This document shows, piece after piece, positions 1,647 through 12,090 of a stretch of DNA of 17,004 bases. This stretch comes from Fidelibacterota bacterium. GTDB lineage: Bacteria; Fidelibacterota; Marinisomatia; Marinisomatales; TCS56. The stretch spans positions 1 through 17,004 of the forward strand of contig JBDRBK010000153.1 in assembly GCA_043822705.1 (NCBI GenBank), written 5' to 3'. The notes under the pieces are model-generated. The model made no database searches, was not told where the DNA came from, and saw only the letters and a list, made by a program, of their open reading frames with translations. Within the stretch, counting starts at the first letter, position 1. Every line of letters begins with the position of its first letter. The translations under genes were made by a program, and so were the position numbers.

Positions 1647-2333
1647 ATGATTGTGCAGACACCGGCCGTCGTGCTGAAAAGCTTTCCCTATGGCGACACC
1701 AGTCTGGTGGTCCGGTGTTTTACCCGTGATATGGGTAAGGTCAGCCTGATCGCCCGGGGTGCCCGCAGCAAGAAATCGCCGCTGGGCGCCTATCTGCAAC
1801 CAATGAGCTATCTGGAACTGGTCTTTTATCATAAAACCACCCGCGAGCTGCAGACCATTTCCAAAGTCTCCTTTTTAGGTAGCTGGCCGGCGATACTGGG
1901 CGATCTGAAGAAAATCAGTTACGGCCTGGCAGTTGTCGAATTGACCGACAAGACGCAGCGGGACCACGACGCCCATCAGGACCTGTTCGATCTGCTGGTG
2001 GAAGTGCTGACGACCATCAATCAGCGCCAGGAGCGCCTGAATCTGGTGTTCTGGTATTTCCAGGTCCGATTGCTGTCCAGCCTGGGATTTCGCCCCAACC
2101 TGTATGATCGGGAATTGATCGGTTTCACCCTCCCCGATCCGGCGGCGGGACCTAACAGCCGACTGCTGATCGAAGCTTTGCTGGAACACGATCTGGCGTC
2201 GCTACCGGACCTTCCGGTCACCGCCCGCGACCGGAAGGCTATCGCCGAGTATCTGAATGCCCAGATGCGCTACCATTTCGAGAATATTACCGAGTTGCAA
2301 TCATTGAAGGTATTGAAACAAATTCTGGACTGA
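1647..2333 (+). CDS. recO: DNA repair protein RecO
   Basis: 228 aa. N-terminal OB-fold signature AVVLKSFPYGDTSLVVRCFTRDMGKVSLIARGAR..KS, helical middle, LGFRPNL motif and C-terminal L.SL..L. No Cys4 zinc finger. Confidence 0.92.
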   Translation: MIVQTPAVVLKSFPYGDTSLVVRCFTRDMGKVSLIARGARSKKSPLGAYLQPMSYLELVFYHKTTRELQTISKVSFLGSWPAILGDLKKISYGLAVVELTDKTQRDHDAHQDLFDLLVEVLTTINQRQERLNLVFWYFQVRLLSSLGFRPNLYDRELIGFTLPDPAAGPNSRLLIEALLEHDLASLPDLPVTARDRKAIAEYLNAQMRYHFENITELQSLKVLKQILD

Positions 2334-3208
2334 TGACAGCGGAAATCATAAGTGGCAGACTGGTGCAGGACGGCGCCCGAGCGTTCGTCGAAGACGGGCA
2401 GGGCCGGCGCCATTTCACCGATGAGCTGATCTGGGACGGCTATCTGCGGCACTGGTCCGGGCGGTCGATCTGCTCCCGCTACCTGCCGCAGACCGATTAT
2501 GAAACCGGCCGGCCGATCATTATCATGTGGCCCGCTGAGGCGCCGGCCGCCGAACCGATCGTTGAGCTGTATTACAATGAGCGTCTGGTGAAATACCCGG
2601 CCTCGACGTTTGGTCATGTCGCTATTAATGTGGCCGGTGAAATATTCAATTTTTCCCACCTGGTCAACGAGAATGAAGCCATGTCGCCGGAGGAATATTT
2701 TTACCGGCCGGCATTGGGCGAATTCGCCCCGTCGCCGGGCAACGGCAAATTCGAGATACTGGAAAACGGGCGGGCTTACTACGATAAATTCGGTCGGAAT
2801 TTTATGCGGACGATCCACGTCACCCGGGTCACCGGCATCGATACCGGGAAACTGGCGGCGATTTTTCATAATGAGCTGGCGGTGATTCACGATACGCCGG
2901 TCGATTCCCGGCAACCGGAGAAATACCGCGATTTTAATTTTTTCACCCGCAGTTGCGGTACGATCATCCGGGACGGGCTGCGGCAGTACGGCTTCAGCGG
3001 TATCAGCGGCTTTCTGCCGCGGGACTTATTAGTGAGCGCCACCGCCGCCCTGTTGCGGTCCCAGGCGCAGGGGCTGGTGCGGGTGCGGCGCTACCTGATG
3101 CCGCAACTGCGGGTGCCGGAGGCGCCGCCCAGCGCATTGTCACCGTTGTTTAATCCCTGCAACCGCCGGCGGCTGCGGAACTTTCCCCCGGAAGCCACAT
3201 CGAAATAG
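2333..3208 (+). CDS. Hypothetical protein, probable permuted papain-like (DUF4105/Lnb-like) His/Cys enzyme
   Basis: 291 aa. Start overlaps the recO stop (TGATG) and the stop is 1 nt before the next ATG. Motifs PASTFGH95VAI..IFNF and FNFFTRSC208GT. The ORF is well supported; the family call is tentative. Confidence 0.7.
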   Translation: MTAEIISGRLVQDGARAFVEDGQGRRHFTDELIWDGYLRHWSGRSICSRYLPQTDYETGRPIIIMWPAEAPAAEPIVELYYNERLVKYPASTFGHVAINVAGEIFNFSHLVNENEAMSPEEYFYRPALGEFAPSPGNGKFEILENGRAYYDKFGRNFMRTIHVTRVTGIDTGKLAAIFHNELAVIHDTPVDSRQPEKYRDFNFFTRSCGTIIRDGLRQYGFSGISGFLPRDLLVSATAALLRSQAQGLVRVRRYLMPQLRVPEAPPSALSPLFNPCNRRRLRNFPPEATSK

Positions 3209-3209
3209 C

Positions 3210-4034
3210 ATGCGTTACCAATTCCAGTCCGAACATGGTCAGTTTTCATTCCGGCCGCGGGTCTTCACCGAAGCGATTAAAATACTGATCATCATCAATG
3301 TCGGTATCTTTATCCTGAACCTGATCGCCCGCCAGGTGATCGACCTGACGCTGATCTTCGGTCTCTCATCGTCTACGGTCTGGCCGCTGATCTGGCAACC
3401 GTTCACCTACATGTTCATGCATGGCAATACCTGGCATGTGCTGATCAACATGTTTGTCCTGTGGATGTTCGGCAGCGAACTGGAAACGATCTGGGGCAAA
3501 AAGGAATTTCTAAAATATTATTTCACCACCGGCGTCGGTTCGGGCCTGATCTGGCTGCTGTTCAACATCGGCAACCCGCAATCGATTCTGATCGGCGCCA
3601 GCGGTGCTGTCTACGGAATTTTACTGGCCTTCGGGATGATGTTCCCCAACCGGACCGTCTATATTTATTTTCTGTTTCCGGTCAAAGTAAAATGGTTTGT
3701 CATTTTTCTCGGCGCCATGGCTTTTGTTTCATCCCTGGGACCGGGCAGCAATATCGCTCATCTGACCCATCTATCGGGCATGATCATCGGCTACCTTTAC
3801 CTGAAGTCGGACTGGCATATGAAAAAGATGCGCTTTTCGATGCACAAGAAATTCACCGAATTCCGGACCCAGTCCCGGGAACGCAAGGTGGAGAAGAAGA
3901 CGCAGTACCGGCAGGAAATCGACCAGATTCTGGATAAGATCAACCGGGTCGGCTATAACGGGTTATCGGCGGAAGAACGGGAACGTCTGTACGACGCCAG
4001 CCGGCGCCTGTCCCGCGAACAGAATCACGATTAA
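3210..4034 (+). CDS. Rhomboid family intramembrane serine protease with C-terminal DUF6576-like tail
   Basis: 274 aa with multiple TM segments. Motifs WQPFTYMFMH..WHVLINM, catalytic GASG and AHLTHLSG; C-terminal EIDQILDKINRVGYNGLSAEERERL. Confidence 0.93.
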   Translation: MRYQFQSEHGQFSFRPRVFTEAIKILIIINVGIFILNLIARQVIDLTLIFGLSSSTVWPLIWQPFTYMFMHGNTWHVLINMFVLWMFGSELETIWGKKEFLKYYFTTGVGSGLIWLLFNIGNPQSILIGASGAVYGILLAFGMMFPNRTVYIYFLFPVKVKWFVIFLGAMAFVSSLGPGSNIAHLTHLSGMIIGYLYLKSDWHMKKMRFSMHKKFTEFRTQSRERKVEKKTQYRQEIDQILDKINRVGYNGLSAEERERLYDASRRLSREQNHD

Positions 4035-5188
4035 CGCAGCAGCAGAATCTTCTGTGTCATAAAATTCCGGTCACCGCGCACCGCGATTATATACAGGCCG
4101 CTGGGTGCTTTAGAACCGTTAGCCAGTGAACCATCCCAGGAAAAATTGTACTCGGCTGGTAGCAGCGGCCCCGCGCTGATTTGAGTTATTTCATGGCCGC
4201 CGATGTCAAGAATGGAAATCCTGACCGGCATCGGCCGGTTGATTGTTACCGCGAACATTGTCGCCGGATTGAACGGATTGGGGTAGGCCGGTTGTAACAT
4301 AAAGCCGGCGGGATTCAACCCGCTGGCGGCAGGATCAGTCGCTGCCGGGTCGCCCCAGATCAATTCGGCAAAAGCGGCGTTGTCGATGAACGGATTGCGG
4401 TTGTGCTGCAGGGCGTAGACCGCGTCGTTGCGGTCCAGTTCCTTTTGACTGACCGGATCGGCGGCATGCCAATCCAGCAGCATTGCCAGCGCCCAGTCCT
4501 TCAATTGGGCGCCGGTGGTCATCGCGCTGCCGGCCCAAACGCCGTCTTCTCCATAGTAACGCACCGACATGTAAAAATAGGTACGGGCGAGATCACCTTT
4601 ATATTCATCGATCGGCTCGAACACAGTCCCGGTATAGCCGGGGTAGGAACAGGAGCCCACCTTGCTGCCGTTCAATGAAGTCCAGGAGGTGCTACCGACC
4701 TCGCCGTAGGGGTAGCTGCCGCGTTTATTGTTCACCAGTTTATCGGTCGGATAGAGATGAAATAAATCGCTGTTCATGGGTGACAGATCGTTGAACCAGC
4801 TTTTCGGCCATGAATGTTCGCGGTTATATACATCGCCTTCAGTGGTTCCGCCCGACCCGATGTCCTGATCCTGGATAAAAGTGAATTCATACGGCGGCGT
4901 GCCCCCGGGAATATCGGAATACATGTCCCAGACCTTGCCGTTGGGTTTTTTATCGGTGGACTGGAAGGCGGTCCACAGGTAAGCGTAATCCAGATCGGTG
5001 TGATTATCGATGATGCCGTGCAAGGCAACCTGCAGGGCGGTTTTGGTCAAACCGTTGGCCGGGTTGTAGTAGCCGGCGGGGACGTCGGCGCGGGCCGGAA
5101 CAAGTGCCAATGCCAGCAGCATGGCAATAGCGGTGCGGCGCAGGCGGGCGGTATAAATAGTGTTCATGAGTGTGGCAGTCGCTTTCAT
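4031..5188 (-). CDS. Secreted endonuclease I family (Bsn/EndA-like) nuclease with T9SS-like/FlgD C-terminal sorting domain
   Basis: Signal peptide RLRRTAIAMLLALALVPARA. Nuclease motifs YNREHSWPKSW, DLFHLYPTD..VN..R, FEP.DEYKGDLAR.YFYM.VRY and RN......Q.NRNPFID. CTD AYPNPFNP...WDG....G...PSGLY...TQKILLLR. An alternative start at 5167 is possible. Confidence 0.9.
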   Translation of the reverse strand: MKATATLMNTIYTARLRRTAIAMLLALALVPARADVPAGYYNPANGLTKTALQVALHGIIDNHTDLDYAYLWTAFQSTDKKPNGKVWDMYSDIPGGTPPYEFTFIQDQDIGSGGTTEGDVYNREHSWPKSWFNDLSPMNSDLFHLYPTDKLVNNKRGSYPYGEVGSTSWTSLNGSKVGSCSYPGYTGTVFEPIDEYKGDLARTYFYMSVRYYGEDGVWAGSAMTTGAQLKDWALAMLLDWHAADPVSQKELDRNDAVYALQHNRNPFIDNAAFAELIWGDPAATDPAASGLNPAGFMLQPAYPNPFNPATMFAVTINRPMPVRISILDIGGHEITQISAGPLLPAEYNFSWDGSLANGSKAPSGLYIIAVRGDRNFMTQKILLLR

Positions 5189-5257
5189 CGATTAATCACA
5201 GCAGTAGTTTAGCGGTATAAAGCCGGTTGGGGCAAGTACCTTGAGCCGGGAACACTG

Positions 5258-7528
5258 TTAGCGGGTCAGCAGCAATTTGCCGGTTTGAACCATCGTGCCG
5301 GATTCCAGTCTCAGCAGATAACAGCCGCTGGCGGCTGCGGTGCCGGAGGTGGTTCGGCCATCCCAGACGATAGTATGTTGTCCCGGCTCCAGCGGTCCGT
5401 CGTTGAGGACGGTCACCAGCCGGCCGGCAATGTCGAACACCGCGACCCGGTAGCTGTCCCGGTTAGCGACGTTGAAGGTTATATTGGTGCGAGGATTGAA
5501 GGGGTTGGGCCAGGCCGATGCCAGACCGAAAGCCGCCGGTTGAACAGTGACCGCCACCGGACCGTGGCTGGTGGCGAAACCGTTATAATCAATATCGGCC
5601 AGCGTGTAATAATATGTTTGTCCCACCCGCACTTGTCGATCGCTGAATTGATAATCGGTCTGCCGGCTGACCGAGCCTTGCCCCTGCAGGCGGTCGTCGG
5701 TCAGGTAATCGGCGATTTTTTGAAAATCCGAGTAATTATCCCGGCGATAGAGGATAAATCCCAGGTTATCCATTTCCGAGGCGGTGGACCATTCCAGCAG
5801 CACCTGCCCGCCCGCTGAACGTCCGGAAAAGCGGTATAATTCCACTGCCAGGGACTGATCGCCATCCAGTTGGCCGGGCGTCGAATTGATCCCGTTGGCG
5901 GAACTACTGGGGGTAAATGTACCGATCGGATTCTGAATTGTGCGTAGTCCGTCGCCGCCGGCCGCCGCGCCGGTATCGTCGAACAGGGTGCCGTCATCCG
6001 CATTGGCACTGCCGTCGCTGCCGCGCAACCGCCAGCGCCGGGCCGTGGAAGTACCAAAAAACAGGCTGGTATTACCGTCATAGAATTTGGCGGCGGACGG
6101 GAACGACGAAAAGGCCGCTTCAAAAGTGGAACGGTCGGCCCCGCGGGAAATGACCCACAGACCGCCAGCAGGGACCAGGACATCACCGCCCTCACCGTCG
6201 CTGCCGATGTCAAAAACATATTCGCTGGTATTGGTGGAAGCGGAGGCCATCACCAGTTTGTAGCCGGTCAGATCGACGGTGGCGGAACTGGAATTGTAGA
6301 TTTCCAGAAATTCGGTAGTATAATCGGCATTGCCTTCCGAAACTTCGCTGATATACAGCGGCGGCGCGTCGTTTTCACTGATAGTCAGGGTGAATTCACC
6401 GGGGTAACCGCTGGCGGCGGAATTGCCACCGCTGACATTCTGGAGCGCAAACGTGATGGTCTCACTGCCTTCAAATACGGCATCATCGGTAAGGGTCAGA
6501 CTGATGGTCTGGTCGGCGCTGCTGTTGGCCGGAAAAGTGACGGTCTGGGTGGTGTAATTATTGATGTCGGCCGCGGAACCGCTGCCGCCGGTGATTGCCA
6601 CCTGGGCGGTAGTGGCGGTGGTGGCTGACATGTTGGAAAGGGAAGCAGTGAGGTTGTAAGTCCCGGCGCCTTCAGTGACGGTGGCGCCGAAAGCGCTGAA
6701 CTGGACGGTGGTATTACTGGAACCCCAGATCGAAACGGCATACTCCGGGTGATCGATAAAGGGATTGCGGTTTCCCTGAAAATGATAGATCGTATCGTTG
6801 CGGGTCCGCTCCCAGTTGTCCACCGGGTCGTCGTTGTGCCAGGTCAACAGGGTCGAGAGCTTGCCGAACAGAGGACTGTTTTCGGCGTTATTGCCGGTGG
6901 AGTCCACCAGTTCCAGGTCGTATTCGCTGTCGTCGGAATGTTTTCCGGGATCGTAGCGGACCACCATATAAAACATCATCCGGGCTACATCGCCCTTGAC
7001 GGCGTCGCGCGGCTCCCAGGTCCAGGCCTCGGTATCATAGTAGCAGCCGATGGCCTCGGTGTGGGCGGTAGTGCATTCATCAAATTCGCGATTATTGCGG
7101 TCGGTATTTACCGATTCGTCCGCTGGCCGCAGGTGATGGATGTCGGTATAGGCGGTGTCGCTCTCACTGGGAAAGCCATGGGATTTAGCCCAGACGTGCT
7201 CCCGATTCCAGCGGTCGCCGGTGTAGGTCAGGTTCTCGCCGCTGTTGTCGGATTTGGGATGGGAGCGACCGCTGTACAACAGGATAACATTGGCGGAATT
7301 TTCCGGGTCTTCATCGGTGATTTTCAGCAGGTCCCAGACGTCGGTGCCGCTGCCGGTATAAGGATAGCGGGTGTGATTCTTGACTATTCCGTGCAGGGCA
7401 GCCTTCAATTCGGTGCCGCTTTTGCCGCTGGCCGCATCATAATAACCGCCGGGAATTCCGGCTGGAATTAAATTGTTCGTCAGTACAAAAAGAAAAATGA
7501 GAATTGATAGTCGGTTAATCTTTGACAC
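5258..7528 (-). CDS. Secreted endonuclease I family nuclease with Calx-beta-like, lamin-tail-like, LxVEL Ig/FN3-like and T9SS-like/FlgD C-terminal domains
   Basis: 756 aa, GTG start preceded by GGGGG, with a signal peptide. Nuclease motifs WNREHVWAKSHG, DIHHLRPADESVN..R, WEPRDAVKGDVARMMFYMVVRY and QGNRNPFIDHPE. Calx-beta-like TVQF..TVTEG..DDAVFEGSET; LTD-like LYISEV..EFLEIYN..VDLTGYKL; then LAVEL..WSTASEMDNLGF and AWPNPFNP CTD. Confidence 0.9.
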   Translation of the reverse strand: MSKINRLSILIFLFVLTNNLIPAGIPGGYYDAASGKSGTELKAALHGIVKNHTRYPYTGSGTDVWDLLKITDEDPENSANVILLYSGRSHPKSDNSGENLTYTGDRWNREHVWAKSHGFPSESDTAYTDIHHLRPADESVNTDRNNREFDECTTAHTEAIGCYYDTEAWTWEPRDAVKGDVARMMFYMVVRYDPGKHSDDSEYDLELVDSTGNNAENSPLFGKLSTLLTWHNDDPVDNWERTRNDTIYHFQGNRNPFIDHPEYAVSIWGSSNTTVQFSAFGATVTEGAGTYNLTASLSNMSATTATTAQVAITGGSGSAADINNYTTQTVTFPANSSADQTISLTLTDDAVFEGSETITFALQNVSGGNSAASGYPGEFTLTISENDAPPLYISEVSEGNADYTTEFLEIYNSSSATVDLTGYKLVMASASTNTSEYVFDIGSDGEGGDVLVPAGGLWVISRGADRSTFEAAFSSFPSAAKFYDGNTSLFFGTSTARRWRLRGSDGSANADDGTLFDDTGAAAGGDGLRTIQNPIGTFTPSSSANGINSTPGQLDGDQSLAVELYRFSGRSAGGQVLLEWSTASEMDNLGFILYRRDNYSDFQKIADYLTDDRLQGQGSVSRQTDYQFSDRQVRVGQTYYYTLADIDYNGFATSHGPVAVTVQPAAFGLASAWPNPFNPRTNITFNVANRDSYRVAVFDIAGRLVTVLNDGPLEPGQHTIVWDGRTTSGTAAASGCYLLRLESGTMVQTGKLLLTR

Positions 7529-7897: not shown

Positions 7898-9199
7898 TTA
7901 TTTTACGTATACAACCTTCTGAACATTGACCATACCGCCGGATTGTAACCGTACCAGGTAGACCCCGGCGCTGAGAGTATTGGGCTGCCAGGCCAGGGAG
8001 TAGCTGTTGGCCGGCTGGTACTCATCCACCAGCGTCGCAACCAGTTGCCCGCGGACGTTGAAAACCTGCAGAATGGTTTGATTGTCGCTGGTGATGTCGT
8101 ACCCCAGCGTTACCGCCGGATTAAACGGGTTGGGATAAGCCCGGTGCAGGCCGAACTCCGTGGCTTGAGTCGGTTGTTCGGCGGCGTGAACGGTTACCTG
8201 CACGGTCTGGTGCCAGGTAAGATTGCCGCCGTAGTCCACATCGCCCAGGCGGTAACCGTATTCCACTCCCGGCAACACGGCGCTGTCGCTATATTGATAA
8301 TCGGTGCGCTGGGTGGTCGAGCCCTGCCCGGCCAGCGCCACCGCAGATTTGTAATCGGCTACCGCCGTCCATTCACCCTGCTCTGCGTTCTGCGCTCTGC
8401 GCTCAAGCAGAAAGCCCAGGTTGTCGGTCTCCGATTCGGTGGTCCAGGACAAAACGATTTTACCGTTGTTGGCTACGGCCTCGAATTTGGTCAGTTCGAC
8501 GGGGAGGGATAAATCTCCCCAGGATGTAGCAACTCTAATACCATCAACTATAATATTTTGACTAGAGCTATATTGTCGTAGACAAATCATGCTAATAGAT
8601 GTTTGCCCTGAACCACTTATTGATAATTCAGGCGTGCCAGCAGCAGATTCACTACCGGGAGCGCCAGATGAAAAAACCCATAGACTGGCATTACCTTCAG
8701 TAGATACTTCGTATTTTATAACACATAAATATGTAGTACCTGTACTGAAATTTGTTGGAGTGCTTGCAAAACTGCCGGTACTAGTGTTCGAAAGACCGAA
8801 TTGAAGATTACCGCTTGCGTCTCTTATAAATAATCTGGCTGCAAAAGTTGTGGTATTTTTTCCCAGATGAATAAAATATCCAGCGGCTATATTATCCACA
8901 CGAACAAGAAAAGAAACATAAATAGTGCCAGAAGATTGTTCAGAAAATGTCCGGTTATCATCCTCTCCTGTATTATCAACAAGTGCAGAATTGCCAATAT
9001 TCGATCCAGGATATTCGCTATATGTAAGTCCGCCGTCATTTACAGTGATGGGATTCGTACCAGCGCCACTGTGCGCAGACCATCCATTAGCTGTTAAATT
9101 AGTTCCGGCTGTATATTCAAAGTTTTCTATCAATAATTGCGCATTTATGGCATTGCTAAAAAATGATACAAAGCCAAGTACAATGATTAGTTTCTTCAT
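7898..9199 (-). CDS. Secreted protein: N-terminal beta-sandwich domain of unknown function plus LPVEL Ig/FN3-like module and T9SS-like C-terminal sorting domain
   Basis: ATG at 9199 is preferred over TTG at 9232 because it gives the signal peptide MKKLIIVLGFVSFFSNAINA/Q with GGGG upstream. The Ser/Thr/Gly-rich beta domain ends in DGIRVATSW, followed by LPVEL..WTTESETDNLGF and AYPNPFNP..SAGVYLVRL..QKVVYVK. Confidence 0.88.
   Translation of the reverse strand: MKKLIIVLGFVSFFSNAINAQLLIENFEYTAGTNLTANGWSAHSGAGTNPITVNDGGLTYSEYPGSNIGNSALVDNTGEDDNRTFSEQSSGTIYVSFLVRVDNIAAGYFIHLGKNTTTFAARLFIRDASGNLQFGLSNTSTGSFASTPTNFSTGTTYLCVIKYEVSTEGNASLWVFSSGAPGSESAAGTPELSISGSGQTSISMICLRQYSSSQNIIVDGIRVATSWGDLSLPVELTKFEAVANNGKIVLSWTTESETDNLGFLLERRAQNAEQGEWTAVADYKSAVALAGQGSTTQRTDYQYSDSAVLPGVEYGYRLGDVDYGGNLTWHQTVQVTVHAAEQPTQATEFGLHRAYPNPFNPAVTLGYDITSDNQTILQVFNVRGQLVATLVDEYQPANSYSLAWQPNTLSAGVYLVRLQSGGMVNVQKVVYVK
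8381..8404. repeat. 7-bp tandem repeat (CTCTGCG x ~3.4) inside a CDS
   Basis: ctctgcg ttctgcg ctctgcg ctc. Confidence 0.6.
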
Positions 9200-9410: not shown

Positions 9411-10226
9411 ATGGATATTAGCACCGCCATCGGTTTGATTCTGGGGATCGGCCTGGTTTCCCAGGGAATTATTTTCGGCCACGGCCAGTTGCAGTGGTTT
9501 CTGAATCCGCCGGCGATCGGGATCGTGCTGGGCGGCACCCTGGCCGCCACCCTGGTCAATTACCCGATCCAGAATTTCATGCAGTTATTCAAAGTCACCA
9601 AGGTGATTTTCGGCGCGCAGAAATCGGGTTATATCGAAATGATCAACCTGCTGGTGGATAAAGCCGAAAAAGCCCGCAAGACCGGCATCATGTCCCTGGA
9701 AGCGGACCTGGCCAGCATCAACGATAAATTCCTGCGCAACGGGATCGAGCTGGCGATCAACGAACAAGACGCCAACCGGCTGCGCAATTTCCTGTCGCTG
9801 GAACTGAGCAATATCCGCCACCGCCATGCCATCGCCCAGGAAATTTTCTTCTACATGGGCGCCTACGCCCCGGCCTTCGGCATGCTGGGCACGGTGATGG
9901 GCCTGATCGTCATGATGAATAATTTTTCCGGCGGCGGTGGCGACGGTGCCATCGGCAAAGTCAATTTCGATGTGGCGGCCAAATTCGCCGAACTGCTGGC
10001 CGGCATGGGTCTGGCCCTGATCACCACTTTCTATGGCGTGCTGCTGTCCAACCTGGTGTTTCTGCCTATCGGCGGCAAACTCAAGCGCAAGTCCGAAGAA
10101 GAAATCATGGTCAAGAACATCATGGCCGAGGGCATCATCGGCATCCATGCCAAGGATCACCCGATCCTGCTGCGGGAGAAACTGATGACCTTCGTTCCCC
10201 AGAGTAAACGCACCAAGAAGGAGTAG
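9411..10226 (+). CDS. motA: MotA/PomA-family stator A subunit
   Basis: 271 aa. MD..T.IG TM1, IVLGGT TM2, cytoplasmic ARKTGIMSLE (R89/E97) and DKFLRNGIELAI, TM3 APAFGMLGTVMGLI, TM4 ALITTFYGVLLSNLVFLPIGGKL, C-terminal EGI..I....HP..LREKL. Confidence 0.9.
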   Translation: MDISTAIGLILGIGLVSQGIIFGHGQLQWFLNPPAIGIVLGGTLAATLVNYPIQNFMQLFKVTKVIFGAQKSGYIEMINLLVDKAEKARKTGIMSLEADLASINDKFLRNGIELAINEQDANRLRNFLSLELSNIRHRHAIAQEIFFYMGAYAPAFGMLGTVMGLIVMMNNFSGGGGDGAIGKVNFDVAAKFAELLAGMGLALITTFYGVLLSNLVFLPIGGKLKRKSEEEIMVKNIMAEGIIGIHAKDHPILLREKLMTFVPQSKRTKKE

Positions 10227-10228
10227 CG

Positions 10229-10927
10229 ATGGAACGCCGCGGTGGACTTTCCCAGATGGAGGCCCGGGCCAAGAGTACTTCCTGGGCGATTACCTACGGG
10301 GACATGGTGACCCTGCTGCTGACTTTTTTCATCATGCTGCTGGTGATCATGAACGACGCGGAAAAGCATATCGACCGTGTCATCAATATGCTGCTGGACG
10401 AAAGCTACAAGGAGCTGGCCGATAATGTGACCTCCTCCTATGTGATGGTCGAACGGGTCACCAAGGGCGTGAAAATCACGATGGCCAGCGGCCGCCTGTT
10501 CCGCTCGATGGATGCCGATGTCCAGCCGGATGTCTATCCCCTGCTGCAACAGATCGGCGGTATCATCAAACTGTCGCGCGTGGTGCGGGTCAAGGATGAC
10601 CCGGAATTGCATAAATTCATCGAGTCGGTGGAAAACGCCGGCCGGCAATTGAATATTGAAATCCGCTGCGAGGGGCATACCGACGACCTGCAGCTCTCCG
10701 GCACTTCCCGTTATGACGGCAACTGGGATTTGTCCACCGCCCGCGCCCTGAATATTGTCAAACTGCTGAGTCAGTTCGCCGGCATCCCCGAAGAAAAATT
10801 CTCCGCCATGGGCTACGGCGAATTTCGCCCGGTAGTGCCCAACAGCGACAACGCCGCCCGCGCCAAGAACCGGCGGGTGGAAATCTATTTGGATGCCTTT
10901 ATCACCGTTCCAACTATCACCAATTAG
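10229..10927 (+). CDS. motB: MotB/PomB-family stator B subunit with OmpA-like peptidoglycan-binding domain
   Basis: 232 aa with AAGGAG SD. TM WAITYGD25MVTLLLTFFIMLL carries the conserved Asp. OmpA_C motifs EGHTD, NWDLSTARA, GYGEFRP and KNRRVEI. Confidence 0.9.
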   Translation: MERRGGLSQMEARAKSTSWAITYGDMVTLLLTFFIMLLVIMNDAEKHIDRVINMLLDESYKELADNVTSSYVMVERVTKGVKITMASGRLFRSMDADVQPDVYPLLQQIGGIIKLSRVVRVKDDPELHKFIESVENAGRQLNIEIRCEGHTDDLQLSGTSRYDGNWDLSTARALNIVKLLSQFAGIPEEKFSAMGYGEFRPVVPNSDNAARAKNRRVEIYLDAFITVPTITN

Positions 10928-10936
10928 GGTTGATTC

Positions 10937-11518
10937 ATGAAGCGAAGCATTATTTTACTGGCGCCGGCGTTAATGACGCTGCTGACCGGCCAGGAAACCG
11001 AAGTCATCAAGAAGACACCGATTTACCTGAATCCTGCAAATGAAAAAAGCATTGTCGGCGAATTACTGCCCGGGGCTACGGTCACCAAGCTGCGCAAAGA
11101 TAAATCGGGGCAGTATATCATGGCCACGGTGGAATTCTATATTCCCATGGAAGCGCTACTGGAAGGGCGGGTGGCCAAGAATATCGGCGAGCGCCAGGTG
11201 GCCGACAACGCCACCTTCAAGCTGGCCAGCGCCCAGCGTGACGGTAATACGGTCAAACTCAGCCTGCAGGTCAAAAACAATAGCGACCGGAACCTTGACT
11301 TCGCCCCGATGATGCTGCTCAAGGTGACCGGTAAAGGCGATGTCGTCGGCGAGCTCAATCCTTTCATGGGTACGAACCAGGGGCTGGCGATGATTCCCCC
11401 GGAAGGGGCGATCACGGCTGATCTGTACTATGATTTTAAGTCCGCGCCGAAAAATGTCGAACTGATGTGTACGGCCCGGCCGGGCGGCGACCGGGTGTAC
11501 TACCTGCTGGGGTTTTAG
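10937..11518 (+). CDS. Hypothetical exported protein (possible SH3-like N-terminal domain plus DUF4352-like Ig-fold C-terminal domain)
   Basis: 193 aa, starting 9 nt after the motB stop. Signal peptide MKRSIILLAPALMTLLTG. TPIYLNP...VGELLPGATVTKL...EFYIP resembles SH3b; IGE..V...KL...VKLSLQVKNNSD...IPPEG...L.YD resembles DUF4352. Domain calls are tentative. Confidence 0.75.
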   Translation: MKRSIILLAPALMTLLTGQETEVIKKTPIYLNPANEKSIVGELLPGATVTKLRKDKSGQYIMATVEFYIPMEALLEGRVAKNIGERQVADNATFKLASAQRDGNTVKLSLQVKNNSDRNLDFAPMMLLKVTGKGDVVGELNPFMGTNQGLAMIPPEGAITADLYYDFKSAPKNVELMCTARPGGDRVYYLLGF

Positions 11519-11727: not shown

Positions 11728-12089
11728 TTATTTTTTGTCGTCGGTCTGGCCGGTTTCGATCACCTTGAAGACCTTTTCATTCTTTTTAGCCATTCGGTAG
11801 CGCTCCCGGGCCAGGCGCTCGATATATTCAAAATCGGTTTCCAGCCGCAGTTTCTGTTCTTCCAATTGGATTCGTTCGGCCCGCAGGTCCTCGATATTGC
11901 GCTGAATCTGTTTTCGTTCCAGCCGCAACTGGTAGAGCTGGTAGAGTCCATGATCGCCGAAGAAAAAAATCAGCAACAAGACCACGGCGCCCAGAGTCAG
12001 AACGCCCCGGATCAGGCGTTGCGGACGGGCGCCGTCGGAAGTTGTTGCGCGCCGCGGCTGACGCCGCGGTGTTTTCCTGCCGCGTGACA

Positions 12090-12090
<1 letters not shown>
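11728..12090 (-). CDS. ftsB: Septum formation initiator family protein (FtsB/DivIC)
   Basis: 120 aa. Basic N-terminus, one TM, FGDHGLY, coiled coil, then YIERLARERYRMAKKNEKVF (DivIC signature). GTG start overlaps the eno stop (TAGTG); eno-ftsB is a conserved gene order. Confidence 0.85.

Follow-up and report, generated by a model that had tools for sequence, protein, structure and literature searches.

The 17,004-nucleotide stretch of Fidelibacterota DNA analysed here, referred to as the window, carries a motA-motB pair followed by a gene for an exported protein, which raises the question of what machine this ion motor drives and what the third protein contributes to it. The window belongs to the genome G000 (Marinimicrobia), whose assembly is 93% complete with 6% contamination. 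The relevant features of the window are as follows.

9411-10226, plus strand: motA, 271 amino acids; A subunit of the stator termed class A; Pfam MotA_ExbB and MotA_N
10229-10927, plus strand: motB, 232 amino acids; D25, single membrane helix; Pfam MotB_plug and OmpA
10937-11518, plus strand: third gene, 193 amino acids; weak Pfam match to DUF4352 (E 0.008, below cut-off)
9912-9998, plus strand: extended periplasmic loop of MotA between TM3 and TM4, from the alignment to the solved MotA 6ysf
10937-10990, plus strand: predicted signal peptide of the third protein, with cleavage before the invariant Gln19
10991-11170, plus strand: N-terminal SH3b-like domain of the third protein, a predicted wall-binding fold
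11180-11518, plus strand: C-terminal DUF4352/MPT63-like Ig domain of the third protein, a predicted fold and the sole part retained in a long stalked variant
11728-12090, minus strand: ftsB/DivIC-like gene, convergent; together with eno a marker of the conserved locus (synteny)
7898-9199, minus strand: CTD-bearing secreted protein, divergent; a variable neighbour and no conserved part of the system
4031-7528: tandem pair of Endonuclease I proteins, both with a sorting domain at the C-terminus and one also with Calx-beta and lamin-tail domains
2333-3208: protein of 291 amino acids, no Pfam or NCBIfam match

The ORF calls agree with the three-gene operon described in the earlier note on this DNA (a gap of 2 nt between motA and motB and of 9 nt between motB and the third gene), and R89, E97, P154 and P219 of MotA as well as D25 of MotB were confirmed at the positions it had named. 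The three divergent genes upstream of motA, which it had taken for CTD-sorted secreted proteins, indeed carry Por_Secre_tail or FlgD_ig C-terminal domains in Pfam. An NCBIfam scan of all three operon proteins gave no model above cut-off, the best one for MotA being MotP, and a promoter and terminator scan returned signals at chance level. The gene for the 291-amino acid protein sits between recO and a rhomboid-like gene and is kept in many relatives. The ftsB/DivIC-like neighbour is a synteny marker, which does not imply membership in the stator system. Flagellar genes were not seen among the window ORFs, as judged from their translations and from profile scans of nine of them. The description of the motor as an orphan without flagellar genes thus holds within the window, but not for the genome, which is flagellated.

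Profile searches for fliG and flhA, proposed in the earlier note, matched both FliG and FlhA in G000. The genome contains four motAB pairs, the class A pair of the window included. One pair is located on contig C28 inside a flagellar operon, with flgD, flgE, fliL, fliM, fliN, fliO and fliP as neighbours, which were identified from translations and not from profiles. A further class, on contig C100 (2722-5529; L006; also L080-L084), lies directly behind an HD/response-regulator gene and before a PAS-type gene; this class is also found in G004, there without FlhA. Contig C154 (35434-42985; L007) carries a seven-gene operon, termed class E, which includes motA, motB, a FliF_C-like gene and the gene for a FliG-like protein, the orphan FliG, and which lies behind genes for TPR and carboxypeptidase-regulatory-domain proteins. 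A FliC search yielded a single Flagellin_N match, in the FlgL position, and this was not taken as absence of FliC because the assembly is 93% complete. Two near-identical copies of the fliO/fliP-like genes are located at contig ends (C27 and C28), which is consistent with the 6% contamination or with strain mixing. The G000 cell is probably flagellated, but not through the class A stator.

The third gene is present in 20 of 41 relatives, G000 counted in, and it follows motA-motB at all 20 loci, which is more than chance. In a set of 35 loci taken from named records, partly the same as those of the 41 relatives, motB lies no more than 0.5 kb upstream of the third gene in every case and motA is present in 34, the contig of the remaining one being cut. 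Among 251 genomes of the phylum, a profile search matched the third gene in 55 (49 full-length genes, five long variants and one decayed copy), all of them within a single order of 127 genomes, and it gave no match in the 124 phylum genomes outside that order; where a homologue comes with a taxon name, this is Marinimicrobia or Fidelibacterota. Class A MotB was found in 94/251 genomes, a count from which 11 genomes were dropped whose only match is a 35-38% class B copy. The third protein is an optional accessory of the class A stator, because 14 of the 68 genomes of the order with class A MotB lack the gene; at all 12 loci read without it, motB runs directly into ftsB. The third gene as a conserved partner of motAB is borne out by its constant place in the relatives, and "dedicated" is accurate in so far as it always accompanies motAB at the intact loci read, but not for those 14 genomes. 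FlhA occurs in only 6/49 genomes with a full-length third gene and in 17/94 class A genomes, which, together with the separate motAB pair in the flagellar operon of G000, upholds the non-flagellar use proposed earlier. In the single-contig genome G171, class A motAB, class E and orphan FliG are all lost and a decayed third gene remains; a DNA-methyltransferase-like fragment replaces the deleted motAB (L110, G171:C1:887000-899000). In the families f27, f29 and f31, class A motB is preceded by the genes for a CTD protein and for a lipoprotein of the TPR type (L134, L136, L137, L139-L141, L153-L157, L167-L169), and in f27 and f31 the matching class A motA is found separately at ftsB-eno, with both genes intact. 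A pairing of the lone class A MotB of f27 and f31 with class E MotA was rejected, since most of 10 genomes checked have a class A motA at another place (intact in eight, in pieces in one, no motA match in one).

The third protein has a hydrophobic N-terminus, no further membrane segment and no lipobox Cys. Gln19 is invariant in 36/36 aligned sequences, and cleavage is predicted directly before it; Gln at position +1 after signal-peptide cleavage is a trait of the FCB group. A structure model of the protein (pLDDT 87.7) consists of an SH3b-like N-terminal and an Ig-like C-terminal domain. The modelled C-terminal domain, with structural matches to 3cfu (Z 13.8, rmsd 2.0, 109 aligned residues), 4r4g (Z 12.6) and 1lmi (Z 11.1), is a predicted DUF4352/MPT63-like Ig sandwich resembling YjhA, YcdA and MPT63. 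The N-terminal domain has profile matches to SH3_3 proteins (E 3.5e-7), and its structural matches are of the SH3 type throughout with low Z, the best one being 4krt (Z 5.2, rmsd 2.2, 50 aligned residues); a Foldseek search with this domain gave no match at E <= 0.001. An identity as ribosomal protein S1 (profile E 9e-7, and also an automatic Atlas name) was rejected, as the match spans both predicted domains. In five of five genomes of the genus g31 (L105-L109), the gene after motB encodes an exported protein of 690-865 amino acids, which ends in the same Ig domain and has no SH3 match; proteins similar to it in a profile search contain Big_9, cadherin and PKD repeats. MotA at the g31 loci has an extended first periplasmic loop. 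Retention of the Ig domain alone in the long variant points to this domain as the conserved contact and to the N-terminal part as a variable tether.

It could be argued that the third gene has no connection with the motor and encodes an exported wall protein that happens to lie in the operon, given that it is missing at the 12 class A loci read without it and unmatched in the 124 genomes outside the order. This seems very unlikely, as the gene follows motB at every intact locus read, the long variant at the same place keeps only the Ig domain, and the third gene has decayed where motAB was deleted in G171.

The sequence of class A MotA is informative with regard to its partner. R89, K90 and E97 are invariant in 62/62 class A MotA sequences (some genes counted twice), against a background in which only 8/24 charged cytoplasmic residues reach 95%, and they are so although most carriers lack flagellar FliG. 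In the alignment to a named PomA, R88, K89, E96, P151, T158, T185 and T186 (PomA numbering) are all kept. In the part of PMC10374538 available, PomA R88, K89 and E96 are tied to FliG contact and the three threonines to Na+ selectivity, and D114 is called indispensable. The threonines correspond to T161, T205 and T206 of the window MotA and are found in 33/33 class A sequences; NCBIfam placed the window MotA closest to MotP (E 4e-59, below the cut-off of that model) versus E 0.044 for the ExbB model. Judged by these residues, the class A stator is likely Na+-driven. The D114 position is Asn in 33/33 class A sequences (N117 in the window MotA, next to the invariant E118) and Asp in 20/21 class E sequences. 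The R232 position is hydrophobic in both classes (Ile, Leu or Met in 33/33 class A sequences, I252 in the window; 21/21 class E sequences); it is Arg in 6/6 flagellar MotA proteins of the same genomes, and in seven flagellar-type homologues it is Asn in three, Lys in two and Arg in one. Class A and class E MotA, which are about 30% identical, have a similar non-flagellar C-terminal motif unlike that of the flagellar copies in the same genomes, and this motif is also present in other MotA classes of the phylum. The window MotA aligns to 6ysf over its full length without cytoplasmic gaps, and its periplasmic loop between TM3 and TM4 is 17 residues longer, a feature of every class A MotA shown. 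In two quick trees, the second of which omitted four long rows, the MotA proteins of flagellar operons form a separate clade (SH-aLRT 98-99) that does not include class A MotA; a clade of class A, B and E MotA received an SH-aLRT of 86 or 51, and the class E stem is long.

A candidate rotor for the class A stator is the orphan (class E) FliG, which is found in 183/251 genomes of the phylum at a cut-off of 1e-30, at which a few flagellar FliG may be counted in, in 48/49 genomes with a full-length third gene and in 89/94 class A genomes. A sister cassette, class B, consists of one motA and two motB genes, the first of which encodes a protein with Ser at the position of the catalytic Asp, whereas the second retains Asp; by its sequence, it is a candidate for a natural heterodimeric B2. 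It is often located at the same rhomboid-ftsB-eno locus as class A (cassettes at L066:4192-6407, L067, L068, L069, L071, L072 and L074), and its Asp-less motB was detected in 41/251 genomes after three cross-hits were dropped. In G020 and G034, class A and class B are arranged in tandem. Class A or B is present in 129 genomes, of which 123 have orphan FliG; these 123 are among the 183 genomes with orphan FliG, compared to 6/68 genomes without it, all six being fragmented assemblies, and the counts come from related genomes that are not independent. This co-occurrence is weak evidence because orphan FliG is common and kin are not independent. Furthermore, in the families f17, f20 and f21, orphan FliG is present in 26/26 genomes and class A and B in 0/26, so the rotor does not need this stator. 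The torque region of orphan FliG is three residues shorter than that of flagellar FliG, and in class E MotA one residue is deleted from the Arg..Glu motif, the spacing of which is canonical in class A; these changes in sequence suggest that class E MotA and orphan FliG are a co-adapted pair. In the flagellated family f16 (L123, L124), class E motAB is found at a different locus, and orphan FliG was detected in 0/4 genomes at 1e-30.

Two stators acting on one rotor have a precedent, as described in the accessible portion of PMC5380961, and class A could accordingly be a spare flagellar stator of the sort known from dual-stator swimmers, in which case the third protein would be a helper akin to MotX or MotC. 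G000 does have FlhA, FliG and a flagellar operon, and the Arg..Glu spacing of class A is canonical. However, 43/49 carriers of the third gene lack FlhA, the flagellar operons have their own motAB in the separate clade, and G003 (99% complete, about 70 contigs) already points towards intact class A copies in non-flagellated genomes. Of the 17 flagellated genomes without orphan FliG, 15 also lack class A and B, and only two have either. A role as spare flagellar stator is thus regarded as highly improbable.

The B subunit differs from flagellar MotB in its stalk. Class A MotB has the catalytic Asp in its membrane helix in 12/12 sequences, and the window MotB matches the OmpA-like domain PF00691 with 49.8 bits (cut-off 27.2) and PF13677, which covers a plug-like helix, with 41.2 bits; the peptidoglycan motif is conserved in 43 sequences. 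In class A, 54-56 residues (n=12; 55 in the window) separate the Asp from the first OmpA-like strand; the figure is 88-92 for flagellar MotB (n=6), 58-59 for class B, 74-80 for class E (n=11) and 90-161 for three outside references. The helix between the Asp and the OmpA-like domain is amphipathic and near-invariant across the 43 sequences. Measured by these distances, class A MotB largely lacks the flexible linker. In the flagellar stator, the OmpA-like domain extends to reach the wall, according to the available text of PMC10954123. A MotB lacking the linker would need other anchoring, from which we infer an adaptor role for the third protein.

The missing linker would also fit an ion motor that works on its own, without FliG, and pulls on a periplasmic or envelope partner in the manner of ExbBD or TolQR; such a motor might help to remodel the wall or act in division, and the third protein would be its output or its tether. 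The altered rotor face (N117/E118), the extended periplasmic loop of MotA, the long-stalk variant of the third protein and the constant place beside ftsB are in line with such a motor. On the other hand, R89, K90 and E97 are invariant, the cytoplasmic domain is of the full flagellar type, class A or B is rare in genomes without orphan FliG, and ftsB lies on the opposite strand. We therefore consider a stand-alone motor unlikely, albeit the strongest of the alternatives.

The earlier note had also hypothesised that the motor energises T9SS-like export in place of GldLM. The searches that it had proposed found SprA and PorV-family genes in five of five genomes, and GldL and GldM gave no match in these genomes, with control genomes equally blank; 65 ORFs in G000 carry a CTD-type motif. 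G000, G003 and G004 each have SprA and 19-23 PorV-family matches, with GldL and GldM unmatched there and in the controls. The position of class A motB behind a CTD protein gene and a TPR-type lipoprotein gene in f27, f29 and f31 is one further pointer in favour of this role. It is weakened, however, because the single-contig genomes G171 (94% complete) and G100 (96% complete) have retained SprA and PorV in the absence of MotAB and have only ExbB/TolQ-type PF01618 genes. Moreover, the CTD neighbours of the third-gene locus, to which the note had linked the operon, are not conserved: a CTD gene lies upstream at 9/35 loci and clearly not at 8/35, the other 18 being uninformative. An energising role in T9SS-like export is accordingly judged improbable.

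Compared to known systems, class A is closest in kind to flagellar-type stators. With the Na+ stators PomAB of Vibrio and MotPS of Bacillus and with the FIT/TGI4 class defined in the available part of PMC12505986, it shares full-length homology to solved MotA and PomA structures, the catalytic Asp, the OmpA-like domain, Pro154, the Arg/Lys/Glu rotor contacts and the Thr triad. Unlike PomAB and MotPS, it occurs mostly in genomes without FlhA, has its own exported partner and a MotB without linker, contains the 17-residue insertion in the periplasmic loop and is changed at the D114 and R232 positions. The third protein resembles stator helpers such as MotC/MotE of Sinorhizobium, MotK/MotE of Cereibacter, MotX/MotY of Vibrio and FliL in that it is predicted to be periplasmic and its gene lies next to motB, as does motC downstream of motB in S. 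meliloti (PMC10954123, in the portion available). In contrast to MotC, MotK, MotX and FliL, it has no Pfam or NCBIfam match to those families, has predicted SH3b and DUF4352-like folds, is optional and is found in a non-flagellar setting. The class E operon shares with class A the same genomes, the C-terminal motif of MotA and the use of a flagellar-type stator without a flagellum, whereas class A has a separate locus, no rotor genes of its own and a patchier distribution. Like the 5:2 motors ExbBD, TolQR, AglRQS, GldLM and ZorAB, class A is an ion motor outside the flagellum. We know of no homology between GldLM and the flagellar-type stator, and ZorA has a long cytoplasmic tail, unlike the class A subunit, which has 271 amino acids and ends like MotA. 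According to the accessible text of PMC12505986, the 5:2 motors named here either are without a cytoplasmic domain of the flagellar type or carry extensions of another kind. ExbBD/TolQR-type (GIT) motors are marked by a condensed cytoplasmic domain and a B subunit with no OmpA-like domain, whereas the cytoplasmic domain of class A is not condensed and its B subunit has an OmpA-like domain; the same text treats flagellar-type stators as specific to flagella. A literature search of mainly open-access articles, judged largely by title and the start of the abstract, found no paper on Marinimicrobia MotA and MotB together, on the class A triplet or on the class E operon, and the supplements of PMC12505986 may contain such sequences. 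The available part of PMC13277936 has no passage naming Marinimicrobia, and in that of PMC10359470 fliG is used only as a motility marker.

Taken together, class A is a genuine and conserved variant of the flagellar stator, non-flagellar in its use and with a new, optional partner; its most likely role is that of a second stator acting on a rotor not described before. The more specific proposal, that class A motAB provides a likely Na+-driven accessory stator to a FliF/FliG-like rotor without flagellum and that the third protein is likely a wall-anchoring adaptor, has in our estimation an even chance of being correct. In the proposed mechanism, five MotA subunits would rotate around two MotB subunits, a stoichiometry taken from homology, upon Na+ influx via D25 and the three threonines. 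R89, K90 and E97 would engage the ring of orphan FliG, which is encoded together with the FliF-like protein and class E motAB (on C154 in G000), and class A motAB would act as an optional second stator beside the rotor's own class E motAB. In the absence of the flexible linker, the wall-binding domain of MotB would sit close to the membrane, where the third protein as a periplasmic adaptor might bridge or brace it, its Ig domain contacting the stator and its SH3b domain, or the long Ig stalk in one genus, reaching the wall or beyond.

The reading of class A as a second stator draws on orphan FliG in 48 versus FlhA in 6 of the 49 third-gene genomes, on orphan FliG in 123/129 class A or B genomes, on the joint loss of class A motAB and orphan FliG with decay of the third gene in G171, on the invariant R89/K90/E97 and on the hydrophobic R232 position common to classes A and E. 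Against it stand the general abundance of orphan FliG, the 26 genomes of f17, f20 and f21 that have the rotor without class A or B, the Asn of class A at D114, the absence of the class E deletion, the clade support of 86 or 51, the finding that R232 is not universally Arg in flagellar types, the dispensability of the third gene and the low Z of the SH3b domain. More tentatively, and with a lesser probability than this second-stator reading, the phylum may possess a rotary envelope machine without flagellum, in which a core stator is supplemented by exchangeable cassettes for a second stator, all at a single locus: the linker-less MotAB together with the SH3b-Ig adaptor, this MotAB together with a stalk of 700-870 amino acids, or a MotA accompanied by two different MotB proteins, one of them Asp-less. 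The adaptor would then replace the MotB linker as wall anchor.

For the biology of this group, the finding means that a flagellar-type stator is conserved within an abundant phylum of largely uncultured bacteria, in carriers that are mostly non-flagellated. The class A triplet is a small, expressible module for probing the role of the flagellum-free FliF/FliG rotor, and it bears on the question of how a stator is gated and anchored without the MotB linker. The class B sister cassette, in turn, bears on whether one Asp per MotB dimer suffices.
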